5,005 nt of DNA from a virus (Duplodnaviria > Heunggongvirae > Uroviricota > Caudoviricetes): the IMG/VR virus record IMGVR_UViG_2698536450_000013; one strand, 5' to 3'. A program made the translations under genes and the position numbers. The notes under the pieces are model-generated. The model was not told where the DNA came from. It ran no database searches and worked only from the letters and a program-made list of their open reading frames with translations. Shown here in pieces: positions 1 through 4,776 of the stretch (the stretch's first letter is position 1; each line of letters starts with the position of its first letter).

Positions 1-103
1 CCAGCGACCAGCGACCAGCGACCAGCGACCAGCGACCAGCGACCAGCGACCAGCGACCAGCGACCAGCGACCAGCGACCAGCGACCAGCGACCAGCGACC
101 AGC
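1..103 (+). repeat. Perfect heptanucleotide tandem repeat (CCAGCGA)n, 14 full copies plus a 5-nt partial copy; tract continues past the 5' window edge
   Basis: Direct reading: ccagcga repeats without mismatch from 1 to 98, then ccagc (99-103). The unit is not a multiple of 3. All three + frames are open through the tract and encode the same heptapeptide in circular permutation (QRPATSD in frame 2). Confidence 0.95.
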
Positions 104-2155
104 AGTAAATCAAGAAAGTCTGTAAAATCTGTTGAGCCGGAAATTACCGAACTGGCGAACTCATGGCTTAAATCTTACAGGCTTGATTACAAGTTGCAGA
201 ATGCATCACTTAACGGAGAGATCGATAACGCACTGGACGCTTATTTTTCGAAAAATGGCGGCGCAGGCGGTAATCGTCCCGACGTAAAACTCCTTGTTAA
301 GGACAAATACGGCAAGCAGTATCCCGTTCTCATCGAGTATAAAGGCTACAAGGACAGGCTTATCAGACTTGGCAGCAACGGTATTATTGAGAACAAAGAT
401 GCCAGAAAAGAATGGAATTTTAAAAATATTAATGGATACGCGGTGAATGGCGCAGTCCATTATGCCAACGCACTTCTTCAGTTCACCAATTACCCTGATA
501 TTATTGCTATTGGTATGACCGGCTGGCGCGATGATGGTACAGGCGAACTGCATCATGAAATCGGCGTGTGGTACGTATCAAAGAATAATTTAGGAGCCGG
601 ACAGAAGGTTGGTGAATTCACCGACTTATCGTTCCTTGCTGATAAAAATGTTGATGGATTTCTCAACAAGATAAAGCTGCTTAATCTTCCTCCCGAAGAA
701 CTGGAAAAAATCAAGGCCAGCAAAGAGGAAGAGATAGACACGCGACTTTCCCGTCTGAATAACGATATTTACCAGAATGAAAAGGGGCTTGGTGAAAGTG
801 ATCGTGTTTACCTTGTTGTGGCTACCGTTATTGCAACGTTGGGGATTCCGGGAAAGTTAGCACCGCTGGATAAAAAAGAACTGACCTCTTCAACGGAGGA
901 GGACTTGCGTGATGGTGATATTATTTTCAGGAAAATAAGGAATTTTTTAAGGCTGAAAGCTGTTCCTGAAACAAAAAGAGAAATGATTTTGCGCTCGTTG
1001 CAAAATACGCTGTGGACTGAAAACATTAACAAACCAGTCAACGGTGAAAGCCAGTTAAAGCGCGTGTTTGTTAAAGTTGTTGATGATCTTGGGGAGTATT
1101 ACAAAATTGGACTGACCACCGATTTTACGGGCAAACTGTTTAATGAGATGTATCGCTGGCTTGGATTTACGCAGGACAAGCTCAATGACGTCGTTCTGAC
1201 ACCACCTTATGTTGCCACATTGCTGGCACGACTCGCCAGAGTAAACAAAGATTCCTATGTGTGGGATTTTGCTACAGGTTCTGCGGGATTGCTTGTGGCT
1301 GCAATGAATGAAATGCTCATTGACGCCAGAGAAAATATTCACTCACCGAACGAACTACAACTTAAGGAAGCGCAAATCAAGGCTGAACAGCTTCTTGGCC
1401 TTGAGGTGTTATCCAGTATTTATATGCTGGCCATCCTGAATATGATTTTGATGGGGGATGGTAGCTCGAATATCCTCAATAAAGACTCGCTGGCCGATTT
1501 TGACGGCAAGTATGGATTTGGGAAAACAGGAGAAAAATTCCCTGCGGACGCATTTATTCTCAATCCTCCGTATTCAGCTAAAGGTAACGGCATGATTTTC
1601 GTGCAGAAGGCGCTGTCGATGATGGATAAAGGCTATGCTGCAGTGATTATCCAGAGTTCAGCTGGCACAGGAAAGGCTACGGAGTACAACAAAAAAATAC
1701 TCAAGGAAAATACCTTGCTGGCAAGCATCAAAATGCCTGCGGATCTGTTTATTGGTAAATCAAGCGTTCAGACGTACATTTACGTTTTTCAGGTAAAAAT
1801 TCCGCATAACGCGAAACAGGCTGTTAAGTTTATCGACTTTTCCAATGACGGCTACGCTCGCTCTAATCGCAAAAAGGCAAGAAACAATCTTGTTGATGCC
1901 GATCGTGCAAAAGAGCGTTATCAGGAGGTTGTGGATCTGGTTCACTTCGGGAAAGGTTGCCTTAATATCTTTACGGAGGATGAATATTTTGAGGGAACAA
2001 TCGATCCTGATAGTGGTGAGGACTGGAATCAGACCAGGCCAGTAGATGCTAGGCCAACGCTGGAGGATTTCAAAAAGACGGTAGGTGATTACCTTGCATG
2101 GGAGGTCTCGCAATTACTGAAAAAACAAGGTGAAAACAATTTTGCGGGAAAGTAA
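2..2155 (+). CDS. 5'-partial CDS: gamma-class N6-adenine DNA methyltransferase with an N-terminal putative PD-(D/E)xK nuclease domain (Type IIG/IIB-like or Type I HsdM-like modification subunit)
   Basis: Frame 2 has no stop from the window start to TAA at 2153-2155. The ORF track starts at TTG 194 only because there is no ATG/GTG/TTG earlier; the upstream translation (SVEPEITELANSWLKSYRLDYKL) reads as ordinary protein and TTG 194 has no convincing Shine-Dalgarno. Motifs seen: LTPPYVATLLARLARV followed by VWDFATGSAGLLVAA (SAM-binding motif I, about nt 1258-1300), FILNPPYS (catalytic motif IV, about nt 1552-1575), and the post-NPPY region AAVIIQSSAG...LASIKMPADLFIGKSSVQTYIYVFQV typical of HsdM/MmeI-type enzymes. 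N-terminal RPD (D codon 281-283) ... IEYK (E 335-337, K 341-343) fits PD-x(n)-ExK. Confidence 0.8.
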   Translation, partial: QRPATSDQRPATSDQRPATSDQRPATSDQRPATSSKSRKSVKSVEPEITELANSWLKSYRLDYKLQNASLNGEIDNALDAYFSKNGGAGGNRPDVKLLVKDKYGKQYPVLIEYKGYKDRLIRLGSNGIIENKDARKEWNFKNINGYAVNGAVHYANALLQFTNYPDIIAIGMTGWRDDGTGELHHEIGVWYVSKNNLGAGQKVGEFTDLSFLADKNVDGFLNKIKLLNLPPEELEKIKASKEEEIDTRLSRLNNDIYQNEKGLGESDRVYLVVATVIATLGIPGKLAPLDKKELTSSTEEDLRDGDIIFRKIRNFLRLKAVPETKREMILRSLQNTLWTENINKPVNGESQLKRVFVKVVDDLGEYYKIGLTTDFTGKLFNEMYRWLGFTQDKLNDVVLTPPYVATLLARLARVNKDSYVWDFATGSAGLLVAAMNEMLIDARENIHSPNELQLKEAQIKAEQLLGLEVLSSIYMLAILNMILMGDGSSNILNKDSLADFDGKYGFGKTGEKFPADAFILNPPYSAKGNGMIFVQKALSMMDKGYAAVIIQSSAGTGKATEYNKKILKENTLLASIKMPADLFIGKSSVQTYIYVFQVKIPHNAKQAVKFIDFSNDGYARSNRKKARNNLVDADRAKERYQEVVDLVHFGKGCLNIFTEDEYFEGTIDPDSGEDWNQTRPVDARPTLEDFKKTVGDYLAWEVSQLLKKQGENNFAGK

Positions 2156-2214: not shown

Positions 2215-3309
2215 TTGTTCTATGTGAGCACAGGCTCGCTTATCTCCTCAGGAAGATTAAAACCAGGCAAAATCAAACGTGTTTCAGCAAAGAGCGATCA
2301 AAACGGTATCATCGGAGAGTTTGATACCGAGTTTATGGATGATGCAAGGCATTATGAAAATTTTATAAGCGTTAATTTTTTTGGAGATGCTTTTTATCAT
2401 CCTTATTGTGCCAGCGTAGAAATGAAGGTGCATGTTCTTACATTAAAATCAAGTAAGTCCGACTTTAATGCAAAGCGCGGACTGTATGTTGCCAGTATGA
2501 TTAATAAAGCTTTAAAGGGGCGTTTTAATTATGGTCAACAGTTATCGAGTTCCAAACTCAGAGATGGAGAATATTTCATCTCATTACCAGTGAAAAATAA
2601 TGAAATTGACTGGTTTTTTATGGATAATTATATAGAAGAGCTGGAAGCGGCCCATATAGAAGAGCTGGAAGCATACCTGATAGCTGCTGGGCTGAGTGAT
2701 TACCAACTAACGGAAAAAGATTATCTTATCCTGGAGCATTTTAAAAATATTGAATTTTCAGGCTTTCCTGTTACTGAGTTATTCTCAGTGTGCAATACAG
2801 GAAACATATTGTCTAGAGACATCATAGAAAATAGTGGGGATGTTCCTTATCTTTGTGCTAGCCGTGATAATAACTCTGTTAGTTCTTATATCGCCTATGA
2901 TGACTCACTCTTGGAAAAAGGGAACTGTATTTTTATTGGTGGTAAGACATTCGTTGTAACTTATCAGGAGCGAGACTTTTTTTCAAACGACAGTCATAAT
3001 TTGCGACTCTATGTTAACAATGAGGATGGAAGGACAAAGTTTGCTTATTTGGGCATTATTTCATGTATTTATAGGTCTATTTCACATAAATATTCATGGG
3101 GGGATAGTGTTAGTAATAGAAAAATTAAGAACGATGTTATTTGGTTGCCAGTGAAAAATAAGTCACCTGACTTTTGTTATATAAATGACCTTATTTCAGT
3201 TGTTCATAAGCTTGTCATTAAAGATGTTGTCCAGTACGCAGAACGCAAAATGAACGCATACAGGCAAGCTATAACAAGTCGCGGTTATGATGATTCTGGT
3301 GTCAGTTAA
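2215..3309 (+). CDS. Restriction-modification specificity (S / HsdS-like, BcgI-B-like) protein with two target-recognition domains; true N-terminus probably upstream of 2215 (frame open from 2134)
   Basis: ORF-track ORF of 364 aa ending at TAA 3307-3309. No ATG or GTG start and no Shine-Dalgarno; the listed start is TTG. The upstream in-frame translation VNSPLSDKLRSVEWGEFRIGDLFYVSTGSL looks like the start of a target-recognition domain. A second domain begins similarly (FSGFPVTELFSVCNTGNIL, about nt 2760). A repeated central region (IEELEAAH IEELEAYL) lies between them. The gene is visibly more AT-rich than the tRNA/TerB region. Confidence 0.7.
   Translation: MFYVSTGSLISSGRLKPGKIKRVSAKSDQNGIIGEFDTEFMDDARHYENFISVNFFGDAFYHPYCASVEMKVHVLTLKSSKSDFNAKRGLYVASMINKALKGRFNYGQQLSSSKLRDGEYFISLPVKNNEIDWFFMDNYIEELEAAHIEELEAYLIAAGLSDYQLTEKDYLILEHFKNIEFSGFPVTELFSVCNTGNILSRDIIENSGDVPYLCASRDNNSVSSYIAYDDSLLEKGNCIFIGGKTFVVTYQERDFFSNDSHNLRLYVNNEDGRTKFAYLGIISCIYRSISHKYSWGDSVSNRKIKNDVIWLPVKNKSPDFCYINDLISVVHKLVIKDVVQYAERKMNAYRQAITSRGYDDSGVS
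2630..2672 (+). repeat. Tandem duplication of a 24-bp (8-codon) unit inside the S-subunit central region: two perfect 19-bp copies of ATATAGAAGAGCTGGAAGC at 2630-2648 and 2654-2672
   Basis: Direct reading; the period is 24 bp, so it is in frame, encoding IEELEAAH / IEELEAYL between the two target-recognition domains. Confidence 0.9.
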
Positions 3310-3376
3310 AAAACATTTTACAATCGTAAAAATCCTCATATCATGATAAGAATGGTTACATTGCCACGCTGCTTAA

Positions 3377-3398
3377 CCCGCCGATGCGCGGGTTTTTT
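3377..3398 (+). terminator. Putative rho-independent terminator downstream of the S gene
   Basis: GC stem CCCGC (3377-3381) / GCGGG (3388-3392) with a 6-nt loop, followed by TTTTTT (3393-3398). The stem is short. Confidence 0.5.
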
Positions 3399-3573
3399 GT
3401 ATCCGGAATTCTGTGGGTTACCCTGCCCCCCTTAGAAAGGTGCGACAGCAATTAATAACAAAATCTTAAAAATCGCATATGGCACTATTAGTTTTCTAAA
3501 TATTGTATATTTTAAGTATTGCAGGATAACCCTGTAACGAAGTTTGCGTAACAGCATTTTGCTCTACGAGTTT

Positions 3574-3602
3574 GCCAGCCTCCCCCAGTGGCTGGCTTTT
3601 TT
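3574..3602 (+). terminator. Putative rho-independent terminator
   Basis: 7-bp stem GCCAGCC (3574-3580) / GGCTGGC (3590-3596) with a 9-nt loop, followed by TTTTTTAT. Confidence 0.6.
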
Positions 3603-3604
3603 AT

Positions 3605-3724
3605 GTCCGTAGCGTCAAAGCAGCAATGGCGCTGGGGCGTCGTGCAATTGGCGTTGAGCTGGAGAGCGGGCGTTTTGAGCAGACGGTCAGGGAAGTTCAG
3701 AATGTAGTCAGTCAGAACGGATGA
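3605..3724 (+). pseudogene. 3'-terminal remnant of a beta-class (CcrM/Dam-like phage) DNA methyltransferase gene; N-terminal and catalytic parts absent
   Basis: Frame 2 translation ending at TGA 3722-3724 reads ...AAMALGRRAIGVELESGRFEQTVREVQNVVSQNG*. This resembles the segment that follows the C-terminal SAM-binding motif in beta-class amino-methyltransferases (pattern LGR-x-[FA]-IG-[IV]-E). The expected DPFxGSGTT motif is missing upstream, where the sequence is non-coding-like and contains the terminator. Confidence 0.45.
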
Positions 3725-3726
3725 TA

Positions 3727-3755
3727 TTGCAGAATTAGTTACGTACCGTTATTAT
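3727..3755 (+). promoter_or_regulatory. Possible sigma70 promoter for the tRNA cluster
   Basis: -35-like TTGCAG (3727-3732), 17-bp spacer, -10 TATTAT (3750-3755), then a GC-rich discriminator (CCTGCGCCC) before the first tRNA at 3765. The -35 match is weak. Confidence 0.3.
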
Positions 3756-3764
3756 CCTGCGCCC

Positions 3765-3840
3765 GGCCCTTTAGCTCAGTGGTGAGAGCGAGCGACTCAT
3801 AATCGCCAGGTCGCTGGTTCAAATCCAGCAAGGGCCACCA
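3765..3840 (+). tRNA. tRNA with anticodon CAU, resembling enterobacterial tRNA-Ile2 (lysidine, AUA-decoding) more than initiator or elongator tRNA-Met
   Basis: Hand-folded cloverleaf: acceptor GGCCCTT/AAGGGCC, D-stem GCTC/GAGC, anticodon loop CTCATAA, T-stem GCTGG/CCAGC, T-loop TTCAAAT, encoded CCA at 3838-3840. Confidence 0.88.
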
Positions 3841-3847
3841 TCACATA

Positions 3848-3924
3848 CCGCCATTAGCTCATCGGGATAGAGCGTCAGCCTTCGAAGCTGGTTGCGCGGG
3901 GTTCGAGTCCTCGATGGCGGTCCA
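3848..3924 (+). tRNA. tRNA-Arg, anticodon read as UCG (CGA/CGG-decoding)
   Basis: Hand-folded: acceptor CCGCCAT/ATGGCGG, D-stem GCTC/GAGC, anticodon stem TCAGC/GCTGG, loop CTTCGAA (U33, anticodon TCG at 3882-3884, A37), T-stem CGGGG/CCTCG, T-loop TTCGAGT, discriminator T, encoded CCA. Confidence 0.82.
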
Positions 3925-3937
3925 TTATCTGCACACT

Positions 3938-4014
3938 GTGTTGTTAGCTCAGCCGGACAGAGCAATTGCCTTCTAAGCAATCGGTCAGTGGTTAGACTCC
4001 ACTACAACGCGCCA
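3938..4014 (+). tRNA. tRNA-Arg, anticodon UCU (AGA-decoding, rare codon)
   Basis: Hand-folded: acceptor GTGTTGT/ACAACGC (one G-U), D-stem GCTC/GAGC, anticodon stem ATTGC/GCAAT, loop CTTCTAA (anticodon TCT at 3972-3974), T-stem AGTGG/CCACT, T-loop TTAGACT, discriminator G, encoded CCA. Confidence 0.85.
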
Positions 4015-4027
4015 CACTTATTTTCCA

Positions 4028-4051
4028 GGCTCGCTTCGGCGGGCCTTTTTT
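4028..4051 (+). terminator. Rho-independent terminator closing the tRNA cluster
   Basis: Stem GGCTCGC (4028-4034) / GCGGGCC (4039-4045) with a UUCG tetraloop (4035-4038), followed by TTTTTT (4046-4051). Confidence 0.7.
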
Positions 4052-4183
4052 GTATCTGCGCCACGCCCGGCGCATATCAACCACAGAGCCTTTCGGGGGT
4101 GAGCTTACGGAGTGGTCAGTGTGACTTTCTCTGTGGGCAGATCGCTCCCGGGCGTTGGCTCACCCACCCAAAGGAACGTCACG

Positions 4184-4615
4184 ATGTTTGGTATTTTTGG
4201 TAAAAAAGCCCGCCGAGCGGCAGTGGAAATTAAAAAGTTTGAGAAACGTGATCTGGCACAGGCGGTTATTAATGCTGCCTATCTGGTGGCCTATGCAGAT
4301 GGTGAATGTGAGGCTTCAGAGAAAGCGAAGATCGAGCAGGTCTTGCGTAACCAGCCTGCGTTGTCCGCGTTTACGTCAGAAATTAATGCGATTAGCGCAA
4401 CCATTATCGGTCAGCTGGATACCAATTTTAAAATTGGTCGTCGTGCCGCGTTACGCGAGATTGAGGATGTGAAACACGATACGCGTGAAGCGGAAGACGT
4501 GCTGGATGTGGCGGTGGCCATTGCCGAAGCAGACGGCGAAATAGAGCCGGAAGAGCGCAAGGTGCTGGAAGAGATTGCCGGTGTTCTGGGCCTTCGTCTG
4601 GAGAATCATCTGTGA
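4184..4615 (+). CDS. TerB-like (tellurite-resistance TerB family) domain protein, 143 aa
   Basis: ATG at 4184 is preceded by AAGGA (4171-4175) at 8-nt spacing; stop TGA 4613-4615. Two acidic ADG motifs typical of the TerB fold: VAYADGECEASEKAKI and IAEADGEIEPEERKVL. The ORF-track start at GTG 4112 adds 24 residues with no ribosome-binding site. Confidence 0.7.
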   Translation: MFGIFGKKARRAAVEIKKFEKRDLAQAVINAAYLVAYADGECEASEKAKIEQVLRNQPALSAFTSEINAISATIIGQLDTNFKIGRRAALREIEDVKHDTREAEDVLDVAVAIAEADGEIEPEERKVLEEIAGVLGLRLENHL

Positions 4616-4623
4616 CGGTAAAA

Positions 4624-4776
4624 ATGCGTCTGGCTGTGGTTGCGCTCCTGCTGTTTCTGGTGGTGATGGTGGACTTCAGCAGTCGGATAATGTCAGTGCT
4701 GGCTGACGGTGTGCTGGTGGCGGGTGTGGTGGTTGTTGCTTTCCCGTTGCTGAAAAAGAAAGCATCAGGCGATTAG
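4624..4776 (+). CDS. Small hydrophobic protein (50 aa, probably a single- or double-pass membrane peptide), possibly co-transcribed with the TerB-like gene
   Basis: ATG 4624 to TAG 4774-4776 encodes MRLAVVALLLFLVVMVDFSSRIMSVLADGVLVAGVVVVAFPLLKKKASGD: two hydrophobic stretches and a basic C-terminus. It starts 9 nt after the TerB stop; an in-frame GTG at 4612-4614 overlaps that stop. No strong Shine-Dalgarno, and it is below the ORF-track length cutoff. Confidence 0.35.
   Translation: MRLAVVALLLFLVVMVDFSSRIMSVLADGVLVAGVVVVAFPLLKKKASGD

Follow-up and report, generated by a model that had tools for sequence, protein, structure and literature searches.

The late regions of Stx-type phages are well described in models such as 933W and Sp5 (VT2-Sakai), where the elements follow the order Q, pR', qut, StxS, tR', a short 'putative DNA methylase' ORF, pT, the tRNA genes ileZ, argN and argO, and stx2AB. 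StxS of Stx phages is a small RNA made in the lysogen; it binds Hfq, with rpoS as an activated and stx1 as a repressed target. It is the 258-nt transcript from pR' to tR', and it is cut by RNase E at GU|AUU (+173) (PMC7547250). This unit resembles that of lambda, where the late promoter is constitutive, a terminator follows at once and read-through depends on Q, with the short '6S' RNA as the transcript, as summarised in the same paper (PMC7547250). The likeness is one of logic, with no similarity in sequence expected, and StxS is the longer of the two RNAs and has gained functions in trans. Other phages are built differently at this position. In phiP27 (L24), Stx2a_WGPS2 (gp29) and Stx2c phages a full-length 352-aa methylase precedes ileZ-argN-argO; these enzymes are beta-class methyltransferases of PF01555 and relatives of M.RsrI, CcrM and MboIIA. 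Phages of the Stx1/H-19B type (BP-4795, Lahn1, Stx1a) go from tR' directly to the stx1 region. In the literature searched we found no discussion of a methylase remnant upstream of ileZ. Here we analyse such a remnant in a stretch of 5,005 nucleotides of DNA from a virus of the Caudoviricetes, referred to as the window.

A late-control region of the 933W type

Window positions 3302-4061 align with 933W 20651-21419 at 92.3% identity. The promoters pR' and pT of 933W, its qut site, the two terminators and the three tRNAs all have base-for-base counterparts in the window (Table 1). The order and spacing of every element agree with 933W and Sp5, identity over 3443-3764 is 98-100% (98.4% to VT2-Sakai), and the methylase relic and its breakpoint are identical. 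The window differs from both phages in carrying 4.4 kb of cargo (hok/sok, a heptamer array and restriction-modification, or RM, genes) between the Q body and pR', and in having TerB and DUF3927 genes at the stx position, with homology to 933W and O111 Stx prophages stopping at about 4050-4061. It also differs in a patch at 3395-3442 within the 5' part of StxS, whereas the 3' part of StxS (3443-3602) is identical to 933W.

Table 1. Positions of the features identified or predicted in the window
Feature	Position	Strand	Description
3' end of CCAGCGA heptamer array	1..103	+	same reading frame as RM alpha gene
RM alpha gene	104..2155	+	PD...(E)xK nuclease-like N-terminus and gamma-class N6-adenine methylase in one protein (BcgI-alpha-like)
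HsdS-like specificity subunit (PF01420)	2215..3309	+	last codons overlap start of 933W-type homology
3' remnant of Q933-type Q gene and right-hand junction of 4.4-kb hok/sok + RM cargo	3302..3329	+	junction at ~3301/3302
Late promoter pR'	3317..3344	+	-35 TTTACA, 16-nt spacer, -10 TATCAT at 3339-3344; promoter scan, 933W homology, PMC7547250
Predicted StxS_L transcript	3351..3602	+	252 nt; RNase E motif GU|AUU at 3516-3520
qut (Q-utilisation) site	3358..3365	+	transferred from 933W annotation
Hairpin 1 and T-run	3375..3400	+	first 'possible terminator' of 933W; stem 3375-3394 and T-run by terminator scan
Late terminator tR', forming StxS 3' end	3574..3602	+	7-bp GC-rich stem, 9-nt loop, U6; annotated tR' in Nil3 and Lahn1 records
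Two junction bases (GC)	3612..3613	+	match neither parental arrangement
Methyltransferase relic	3614..3724	+	last 36 codons and stop of 352-aa beta-class N6/N4 DNA methyltransferase
pT, putative tRNA promoter	3727..3755	+	-35 TTGCAG, -10 TATTAT; 933W homology
ileZ-like tRNA (anticodon CAT), argN (TCG), argO (TCT)	3765..4014	+	
Terminator after tRNA cluster	4027..4056	+	

Homology with 933W, Nil3 and Lahn1, together with the promoter scan and the folding of the terminators, places a putative StxS between pR' and tR' in the window. Transcription from pR' would start at about 3351. The predicted transcript is shorter than that of Sakai because of 6 nt of deletions, and when these are counted from a start at 3351, GTATT at 3516-3520 corresponds to +173 in Sakai numbering. 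The surroundings of qut, GTGGTTAC..GCCAC, are also kept in the phiP27 and WGPS2 leaders, as is the stem of hairpin 1 with different loops, and in G6/7-type prophages a mosaic breakpoint lies at this hairpin. Both hairpins fold better than their shuffles (hairpin 1, -12.3 kcal/mol, z = -2.2; tR', -14.5 kcal/mol, z = -3.0) and coincide with the 'possible rho-independent terminator' features of the 933W record, which bears out the two intrinsic terminators that the first-pass annotation had placed before the methylase tail. The same annotation took the surrounding sequence to be AT-rich and non-coding; its composition (40.8% GC) agrees, but what lies there is the pR'-StxS-tR' unit conserved in Stx-type phages, not cargo or filler. 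Positions 3490-3606 also match the RprA covariance model of Rfam, so weakly (28.1 bits, where the gathering score is 70; E = 0.67) that the match has no value as evidence, although it is compatible with the shared rpoS seed reported in the literature (PMC7547250). No StxS family was found in Rfam.

From the sequence identity with Sakai and 933W we infer that pR' is active, that tR' terminates transcription and that StxS is produced in this prophage. If the locus behaves as in those two phages, pR' would fire constitutively in the lysogen and transcription would stop at tR' to give StxS. After induction, polymerase modified by Q would pass hairpin 1 and tR' and continue across the relic and the tRNAs as far as the late genes. 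Transcription of the relic would then occur only within the late leader, and no enzyme would be encoded by it. On the tRNA side, pT begins 3 nt past the stop codon of the relic, and a separate primary transcription start site for the tRNAs has been found between tR' and stx2 (PMC7547250).

The methyltransferase relic and its breakpoint

The methylase tail downstream of tR' is an ordinary feature that is already annotated, and the NCBI pipeline marks it as an incomplete methyltransferase. Comparison of the intact Stx2a_WGPS2 methyltransferase (352 aa) with the whole window by tblastn gave one significant match, between residues 316-352 and positions 3611-3721 (78% identity over 37 residues, E = 3e-14). 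The local alignment score of the tail, 141, is 29 SD above the scores of 2,000 shuffles of it (23.7 +/- 4.0, maximum 45). Neither residues 1-315 of the methylase nor the small ORF that precedes the intact gene left any other fragment in the six frames of the window. The C-terminal end of the intact protein reads ...DFFMGSGSTVKAALALGRRATGVELE..., so that homology in the window begins directly after the SAM-binding motif I (FxGxG; DFFMGSGST in the intact relative), the first homologous residue being V317 at base 3614. Catalytic motif IV, (D/S)PPY, which the intact relative has as DLIVTDPPYF, is missing from the tail together with motif I, and what is present is the segment C-terminal of motif I that is homologous to PF01555 members. 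These results uphold the earlier proposal of a genuine 3' remnant of a beta-class methyltransferase that lacks the SAM-binding motif and all N-terminal parts. The tail ORF alone scores only 12.1 bits against PF01555, below the cut-off of 26.7 (E = 0.19), compared with 150.4 bits for the intact relative, and the homology therefore had to rest on full-length relatives; intact phage methylases were matched by tblastn down to ~50% identity. Judged by these alignments, the tail is a fragment of a methyltransferase gene and not a member enzyme of PF01555. The methyltransferase that another paper describes from a Stx phage (PMC10810198) is a different gene.

Comparison with relatives that carry the intact methylase, a check proposed at the outset, defined the breakpoint at 3611/3614. 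Homology of the phiP27, WGPS2 and Stx2c phages with the window, in register and at 87-95% DNA identity, covers the final 36 codons with their stop, the tRNA cluster and, between these, the 40-nt spacer that holds pT. About 450 nt before the methylase these phages also have a pR'/qut/hairpin-1 leader homologous to that of the window. Unlike the window, they retain methylase codons 1-316, with a 65-aa ORF in the interval from hairpin 1 to that gene, and they have no StxS 3' module and no tR' hairpin. The Stx1/H-19B-type phages, on the other side, match the StxS/tR' module at 95% identity, but in them neither a methylase relic nor a tRNA cluster follows tR'. The StxS-only phages match the window through A3611 and the intact methylases match from G3614. 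Phage records fall into those with StxS and tail (213 records), those with StxS only, ending at 3611 (Stx1a phages, H-19B, BP-4795 and Lahn1), and those that have the tail sequence only, from 3614, within an intact methylase gene. With the intact methylase as query, the whole gene was found in 37 phage records and nt 949-1059 only in ~214, in which the tail always starts at the same first base; 933W, PA16, PA2 and vB_P27 have the same tail, breakpoint and terminators. A full-length copy is present in 1,917 of 5,426 complete E. coli genomes; counted together, whole and partial, the places that match the methylase number 3,557 in E. coli and 251 in phages. The 5' 948 nt of the methylase are replaced by a 213-nt segment (3401-3613) carrying the StxS body and tR', and not by the RM genes.

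It is very probable that window positions 3300-3760 are a standard 933W-type lambdoid late-control region, and that the relic derives from one join, older than the cassette, of an StxS/tR' module with a methylase-tRNA module. By sequence comparison, the tail is an old recombination scar, common to hundreds of Shiga-toxin-type phages without the RM cassette. The join at 3611/3614 would have been non-homologous, bringing the StxS/tR' module of Stx1, H-19B-type phages next to the methylase-tRNA module of phiP27, Stx2c, WGPS2-type phages and exchanging 1,393 nt (the small ORF and methylase codons 1-316) for 213 nt. A single origin is suggested by the identity of the breakpoint, rather than by a phylogeny. 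The relic would have arisen once, long before the RM cassette arrived, and recombination would later have carried the chimera through Stx2-type and related prophages. The event itself may have been a crossover between two phage types or a deletion/substitution within one ancestor. A microhomology, TTTTTT(C)ATG, shared by the U-tract of tR' and the D-F-F-M codons, was considered as the crossover point but was rejected because StxS-only phages share sequence past it, through A3611. Tail variants share polymorphisms with different intact alleles, which requires later gene conversion or recombination.

Two other readings of the relic have to be weighed. The tail could be kept for a function, either as a small protein (a 50-aa ORF from TTG, 3572-3724, or a 32-aa ORF from ATG 3626) or as DNA or RNA that serves pT as an upstream element or takes part in late-leader processing. 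All tail variants examined have an open frame, and a CDS is annotated there in several records, yet there is no Shine-Dalgarno sequence at either start, the TTG lies inside the tR' stem, and one record itself notes 'no RBS found'. Conservation of the tail among 933W-type phages is high (94-100%), but the flanking non-coding DNA is equally conserved, and in vB_P27 the conserved ALGRRA stretch carries L-to-P and R-to-C substitutions. Over the 36 codons pN/pS is 0.1-0.8 and does not separate tails from intact genes; with only 2-19 differences per pair it cannot discriminate. The tail is also absent from nine cassette prophages and from all Stx1-type phages. A retained function is very unlikely, and we give an equally low probability to the particular case in which the 111-nt relic is kept for service to the adjacent tRNA promoter, in spite of the immediate proximity of pT to its stop codon. 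Still less probable is that the truncation arose several times, with terminator-flanked module boundaries acting as recombination hot spots. Mosaic breakpoints do cluster at terminators ending in TTTTTTGTATC-like sequence (about 3400, 3606 and 4050), and the resemblance of tail variants to different intact alleles would fit, but every tail inspected has the same first nucleotide and the same GC filler after the same TCCGTA, a junction with so little real basis in microhomology that independent events would not repeat it.

The RM cassette and its heptamer array

By predicted architecture the RM genes of the window may belong with the BcgI-type (type IIB) enzymes, which combine a nuclease-like N-terminus with a gamma-class N6-adenine methylase in a single polypeptide and have a separate two-TRD specificity subunit but no HsdR; the PhiR12_3 record notes a 'restriction enzyme BcgI alpha chain-like protein'. 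The alpha protein matches PF02384 N6_Mtase (E = 4e-21) and, weakly, VRR-NUC (E = 0.003) over RPD...IEYK, and the S gene matches PF01420 in two stretches. NCBIfam gave only hsdM and MAD2 matches far below cut-off for the RM proteins, and no HsdR is annotated across the 14 cassette loci. In these loci pR' always follows the S gene (14/14), the tail is present in 5 and absent from 9, and the right edge of the cassette is the same in all 14, including an 81%-identical allele; in the window it is at ~3301, between a Q933-like Q gene and pR'. Q of this locus is 74% identical to Q933 and is followed by hok/sok; no second 933W-type pR' flanks the cargo. The RM cassette with hok/sok is very probably a separate 4.4-kb cargo between a Q933-like Q body and pR'.

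The first-pass annotation had it that a low-GC RM cassette landed in a resident methylase gene, or recombined with it, at the cost of most of that gene, and that the right-hand junction is at 3603-3620. The independent distribution of cassette and tail refutes this reading. The RM genes are indeed more AT-rich than the tRNA/TerB region (RM alpha 43.4% and S gene 36.2% GC, against 55.9% for the tail, 55.6% for the tRNAs and 50.5% for TerB) and the methylase breakpoint does lie within that range, but the cassette ends at ~3301, where the sequence becomes 933W-like, and the 312 nt that separate the S gene from the tail are native to 933W-type phages. An identical tail is present in ~214 phage records free of the cassette (933W among them) and the cassette in only one phage record, most cassette loci have no tail, and the pR'-StxS-tR' unit is excluded as a part of the cassette by the hundreds of cassette-free phages that have it.

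The start of the RM alpha gene deserves separate comment. PGAP calls TTG 194 as its start, homologs align from about base 104, and frame 2 is open from base 2. In NZ_CP148357, a 99.5%-identical genome, the heptamer CCAGCGA is present in 88 copies, and the layout is a Shine-Dalgarno sequence with ATG, 11 nt, (CCAGCGA)n, 27 nt and then the conserved SVEP...WLK.Y.L.YKL, at which array-free homologs begin exactly. There is no in-frame start codon between the array and these residues. The unit, whose length is not a multiple of 3, sits between the start codon and the conserved protein body, and the copy number varies from 30 to 120 among 14 genomes, of which 12 are out of frame and two, 09-00049 and strain 48, in frame, with ORFs of 856 aa and 966 aa between them. 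Among the homologs examined only the E. coli gene has such a 5' array, and our literature search found no paper giving the repeat. Because translation of the BcgI-like RM gene runs through a polymorphic array that so seldom keeps the frame, the gene is a candidate for phase variation. It is possible, though somewhat less likely than not, that lambdoid prophages carry between Q and pR' a BcgI-like RM system whose alpha protein is translated fully only through an array of 30-120 copies and is switched by slippage. If this is true, an E. coli prophage would be carrying a phase-variable defence or an epigenetic switch.

Meaning of the relic

The truncated methylase beside the tRNA genes gives no evidence of a recent cassette landing, and represents instead a fixed and widely inherited junction of two late-region modules, situated in one of the best-studied regulatory regions of Stx-type phages. 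For annotation, this means that many phage records list a pseudogene fragment as a 50-aa 'putative DNA methylase' CDS, and that the 'non-coding' stretch before the tail is the stxS gene. The junction at 3611/3614 is also a handy marker for tracing recombination among Stx1-, Stx2a- and Stx2c-type late regions. As stxS is found here in a prophage without stx, the sequence suggests that StxS-mediated RpoS activation may extend beyond toxin-converting phages.

The late promoter region between the S gene and the tRNAs

The window is 99.5% identical over its full length to NZ_CP148357 (strain Z1323HEC0393) and is a portion of a lambdoid prophage of Escherichia coli. The gene order in NZ_CP148357 runs from NinG, NinH, Q, hok/sok, a long repeat array, a 653-aa methylase-type gene and an HsdS-like gene to a 114-nt methyltransferase pseudogene (labelled 'site-specific DNA-methyltransferase, incomplete, missing N-terminus'), tRNA-Ile/Arg/Arg, a TerB-family gene, DUF3927, an esterase, a holin and lysis genes, which places the relic region after the antiterminator gene and before the lysis genes. 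It is between these genes that stx sits in toxin-converting phages. Here, window 4184-4776 has a TerB-family gene (PF05099, E = 4e-16) and DUF3927 in the stx position; among relatives sharing the upstream region, some have stx1c there, some stx2 and some nothing.

Window 3302-4061 is 92.3% identical to positions 20651-21419 of phage 933W, in which the restriction-modification (RM) cassette is absent at the corresponding place, and the features annotated in 933W transfer to the window base for base.

Features of the region 3' of the S gene, transferred from phage 933W
Feature	Window position	Basis
End of Q	Start of 933W-like stretch	933W annotation
pR' (late promoter)	3317-3344	933W annotation; also best promoter-scan match, TTTACA-16-TATCAT
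qut (Q-utilisation site)	3358-3365	933W annotation
'Possible rho-independent terminator' 1 (hairpin 1)	3377-3399	933W annotation
'Possible rho-independent terminator' 2 (tR', late terminator)	3574-3602	933W annotation
pT (putative tRNA promoter)	3727-3755	933W annotation
ileZ, argN, argO, then third terminator	Downstream of pT	933W annotation

The first-pass annotation had proposed two intrinsic terminators ahead of the methylase tail, and both are borne out, as the hairpins are more stable than shuffled sequence (z = -2.2 and -3.0) and 933W terminator features lie at the same coordinates. The AT-rich sequence it described as non-coding is indeed present, but it is not filler. In Sakai, pR' of the Stx1 and Stx2a prophages drives constitutive transcription that stops 258 nt downstream at tR'; RNase E cleavage at a GU|AUU motif (+173) yields a stable Hfq-binding small RNA, StxS, which activates rpoS via a seed common to RprA, DsrA and ArcZ and represses stx1, and for Sp5 'a downstream ORF' is mentioned beside the Hfq site (Sy et al. 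2020, PMC7547250). Since the -10 hexamer in the window ends at 3344, StxS should start at about 3351; a candidate RNase E motif, GTATT, occupies 3516-3520, and the U-tract runs up to 3602. The predicted transcript (3351-3602) is 252 nt, 6 nt shorter than that of Sakai because of two small deletions. Window 3443-3602 does not differ from 933W, and identity to VT2-Sakai is 98.4% over 3443-3764. These identities and the StxS landmarks identify the AT-rich stretch as the stxS gene and the second hairpin as tR'. Judged from sequence, stxS would be transcribed and functional in this prophage. This stxS allele (window 3351-3602) sits in a prophage without stx genes. Processed StxS is given as 74 nt in PMC7547250, whereas the distance in the window between the GU|AUU site (3517/3518) and the last base of the U-tract (3602) is 85 nt, and 258 minus 173 likewise gives 85 nt. 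In Rfam, window 3490-3606, which overlaps the processed region, matches RprA below threshold (28.1 bits, gathering score 70, E = 0.67); this agrees with the shared rpoS seed but proves nothing.

The methylase relic and its junction

The frame-2 peptide ending at 3724, earlier read as a methyltransferase C-terminus, is confirmed as such by tblastn, in which residues 316-352 of the 352-aa Stx2a_WGPS2 enzyme match bases 3611-3721 with 78% identity (E = 3e-14) and an alignment score of 141, where 2,000 shuffles give 23.7 +/- 4.0. This enzyme belongs to PF01555 (150 bits), has M.RsrI, CcrM and MboIIA among its relatives, and carries DPPY near its N-terminus and DFFMGSGST near its C-terminus, the beta-class order. 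The SAM motif and everything N-terminal to it are absent, as had been noted; the window match starts at the residue after ...GSGST, and no further pieces of the gene were found in any frame of the window. The relic thus has neither the catalytic nor the cofactor motif. It has no ribosome-binding site in the window, and the vB_P27 record likewise states 'no RBS found'. In one lineage it carries L-to-P and R-to-C changes, and a test for selection had so few differences to work with that its result carries no information. That the relic is functional, either as a peptide or as an upstream element of pT, is unlikely, and we found no positive evidence for it.

The intact 352-aa gene is present in phiP27 (gene L24), Stx2a_WGPS2 (gp29) and Stx2c phages, where its stop codon lies 40 nt from ileZ, the same distance as in the relic. 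With the intact gene as query, at least 80% of the gene was present in 37 phage records, and about 214 contained nucleotides 949-1059 only, the match starting at one and the same position every time (BLAST-summary counts are per record). A full-length copy occurs in 1,917 of 5,426 complete E. coli genomes.

Searching phage records with tR' plus the tail as one query separates three classes. The first, with both StxS/tR' and tail, comprises 213 records, mostly Stx2a phages. The second has StxS/tR' alone, the match stopping at window 3611 (Stx1a phages, H-19B, BP-4795, Lahn1), and in the third only the tail matches, beginning at window 3614, where it closes an intact gene (WGPS2, Stx2c, Stx2d, 1720a-02). 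BP-4795 reads ...GGCTGGCTTTTTTATGTCCGTA|ACATCC, intact methylase genes read ...GGTTCGAC(A/G)|GTCAAAGC, and the window and 933W read ...TTTTTTATGTCCGTA-GC-GTCAAAGC; side by side, these sequences place the junction at 3611/3614, with two bases (GC) of uncertain origin and no useful microhomology in this comparison. Because the junction is one and identical, repeated and independent truncation is highly improbable.

Phages with an intact methylase have a late leader of their own about 450 nt before the gene, with a -10 region, GTGGTTAC..GCCAC and a hairpin 1 of the same stem and altered loop. After hairpin 1, a 65-aa ORF and the methylase make up 1,393 nt to the breakpoint, where the 933W type has 213 nt (window 3401-3613), namely the StxS body and tR'. 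Most of the methylase was therefore replaced, as the first-pass annotation held, but by the StxS/tR' segment and not by the RM cassette. All three terminators run into a TTTTTTGTATC-like sequence (window 3395-3405, 3597-3611 and 4047-4057), and mosaic breakpoints of cassette-bearing prophages (about 3400, 3606 and 4050) coincide with these ends, as if terminator ends acted like module boundaries.

The RM cassette and its heptamer array

The RM genes are, as previously remarked, more AT-rich (36-43% GC) than the tail, tRNAs and TerB (50-56%). They occur in one phage record (PhiR12_3) and about 30 complete E. coli genomes. Seven modules were scored in 22 loci, which were picked and not randomly sampled. 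pR', qut and hairpin 1 lie directly 3' of the S gene in 14/14 cassette-bearing loci, including an allele just 81% identical. Tail and tRNAs accompany the cassette in five of these loci and both are missing from nine, five of which retain the StxS 3' module before diverging (the JNEC-KY174 match ends at about 3606), the other four diverging straight after hairpin 1 (about 3400, G6/7 type). Conversely, the tail is present and the cassette absent in 933W, PA16, PA2 and vB_P27. The two therefore assort independently among the loci scored, and since the StxS/tR' segment fills the replaced stretch, the proposal that the cassette replaced the 5' part of the methylase is refuted and retains next to no probability.

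Nor does the cassette end at about 3603-3620, as had been suggested; relative to 933W its right edge is window 3301. The cargo comprises 4,407 nt (hok/sok, repeat array, RM alpha and S; positions 7895-12301 of the compared genome L002, window -1105 to 3301) and takes the place of 29 nt at the 3' end of Q, giving Q another C-terminal tail. The Q body upstream is a relative of Q933 (74% DNA identity, PF06530). With its insertion point between this Q body and pR', the cargo lies upstream of the promoter, outside the late operon. Morons such as stx sit in the late operon. WGPS2 and phiP27 also have genes between a Q-like gene and a pR'-like leader. In the S gene, a tandem 24-nt duplication (window 2630-2677, ATATAGAAGAGCTGGAAGC...) puts two copies of IEELEAA(H/Y) into the central part of the specificity subunit; central repeats of this kind fix the spacer length of the recognition site in type I S subunits. 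Several otherwise identical genomes (L002, L015, L017, L020) have this gene split or frameshifted, but it is intact in the window.

The CCAGCGA repeat at the left edge of the window is the end of an array with 88 copies in a near-identical genome and with AAGGAtgattttATG as its upstream flank. The array region (window 1-193, continuing upstream; L002 8472-9193) lies between an SD-ATG and the conserved N-terminus of RM alpha, a BcgI-alpha-like gene, and frame 2 is open from window base 2 into the gene. Arsenophonus, Clostridium perfringens and Acinetobacter plasmids carry homologs of about 70% identity that lack the array and begin MAKLQSVEPNIADMANGWLKSY..., at the very point where the array stops in E. 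coli. Thirteen invariant residues precede the TTG start called by PGAP, and no in-frame start codon lies between them and the array, which suggests that the full protein is translated from the upstream ATG through the array; initiation at TTG 194 is possible. Copy number ranges from 30 to 120 among 14 genomes, and the upstream ATG is in frame in two of them, 09-00049 (856-aa ORF) and strain 48 (966-aa ORF), not significantly different from the one-third expected by chance (P about 0.1, a binomial estimate, the strains not being independent). Array and RM alpha are, on sequence grounds, a candidate slipped-strand phase-variable RM system in E. coli prophages. The heptamer was printed in no paper of the literature searched. 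Across the array (window 1-113; L002 8454-9113), PGAP also calls a protein on the minus strand, named 'YXWGXW repeat-containing' or hypothetical, whose length tracks copy number (336-864 nt) and which is therefore probably an artefact of the stop-free repeat.

Probable origin of the relic and predicted transcription across it

The relic and the arrangement of its region are already known, since the NCBI pipeline annotates an incomplete methyltransferase, many phage records carry a 50-aa 'putative DNA methylase', and 933W and Sp5 match the window region element for element. The origin of the relic was discussed in no paper of the literature searched, to which the original 933W and phiP27 genome papers did not belong. 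The junction at nucleotide level and the three-class distribution may be previously unrecorded, and they are ordinary phage mosaicism.

The relic is very probably the inherited scar of one non-homologous join, spread by recombination, which entered this lineage with the tRNA module and independently of the RM cargo. A single join of two late-region modules, both still found separately, would have created it; the junction would then have spread among Stx-type prophages through recombination, and relic and tRNA module would have entered this prophage lineage together. In the lysogen, pR' would produce StxS. After induction, Q-modified polymerase would pass hairpin 1 and tR', cross the relic and the tRNAs and continue into TerB, DUF3927 and the lysis genes, and pT may supply tRNA expression independent of Q.
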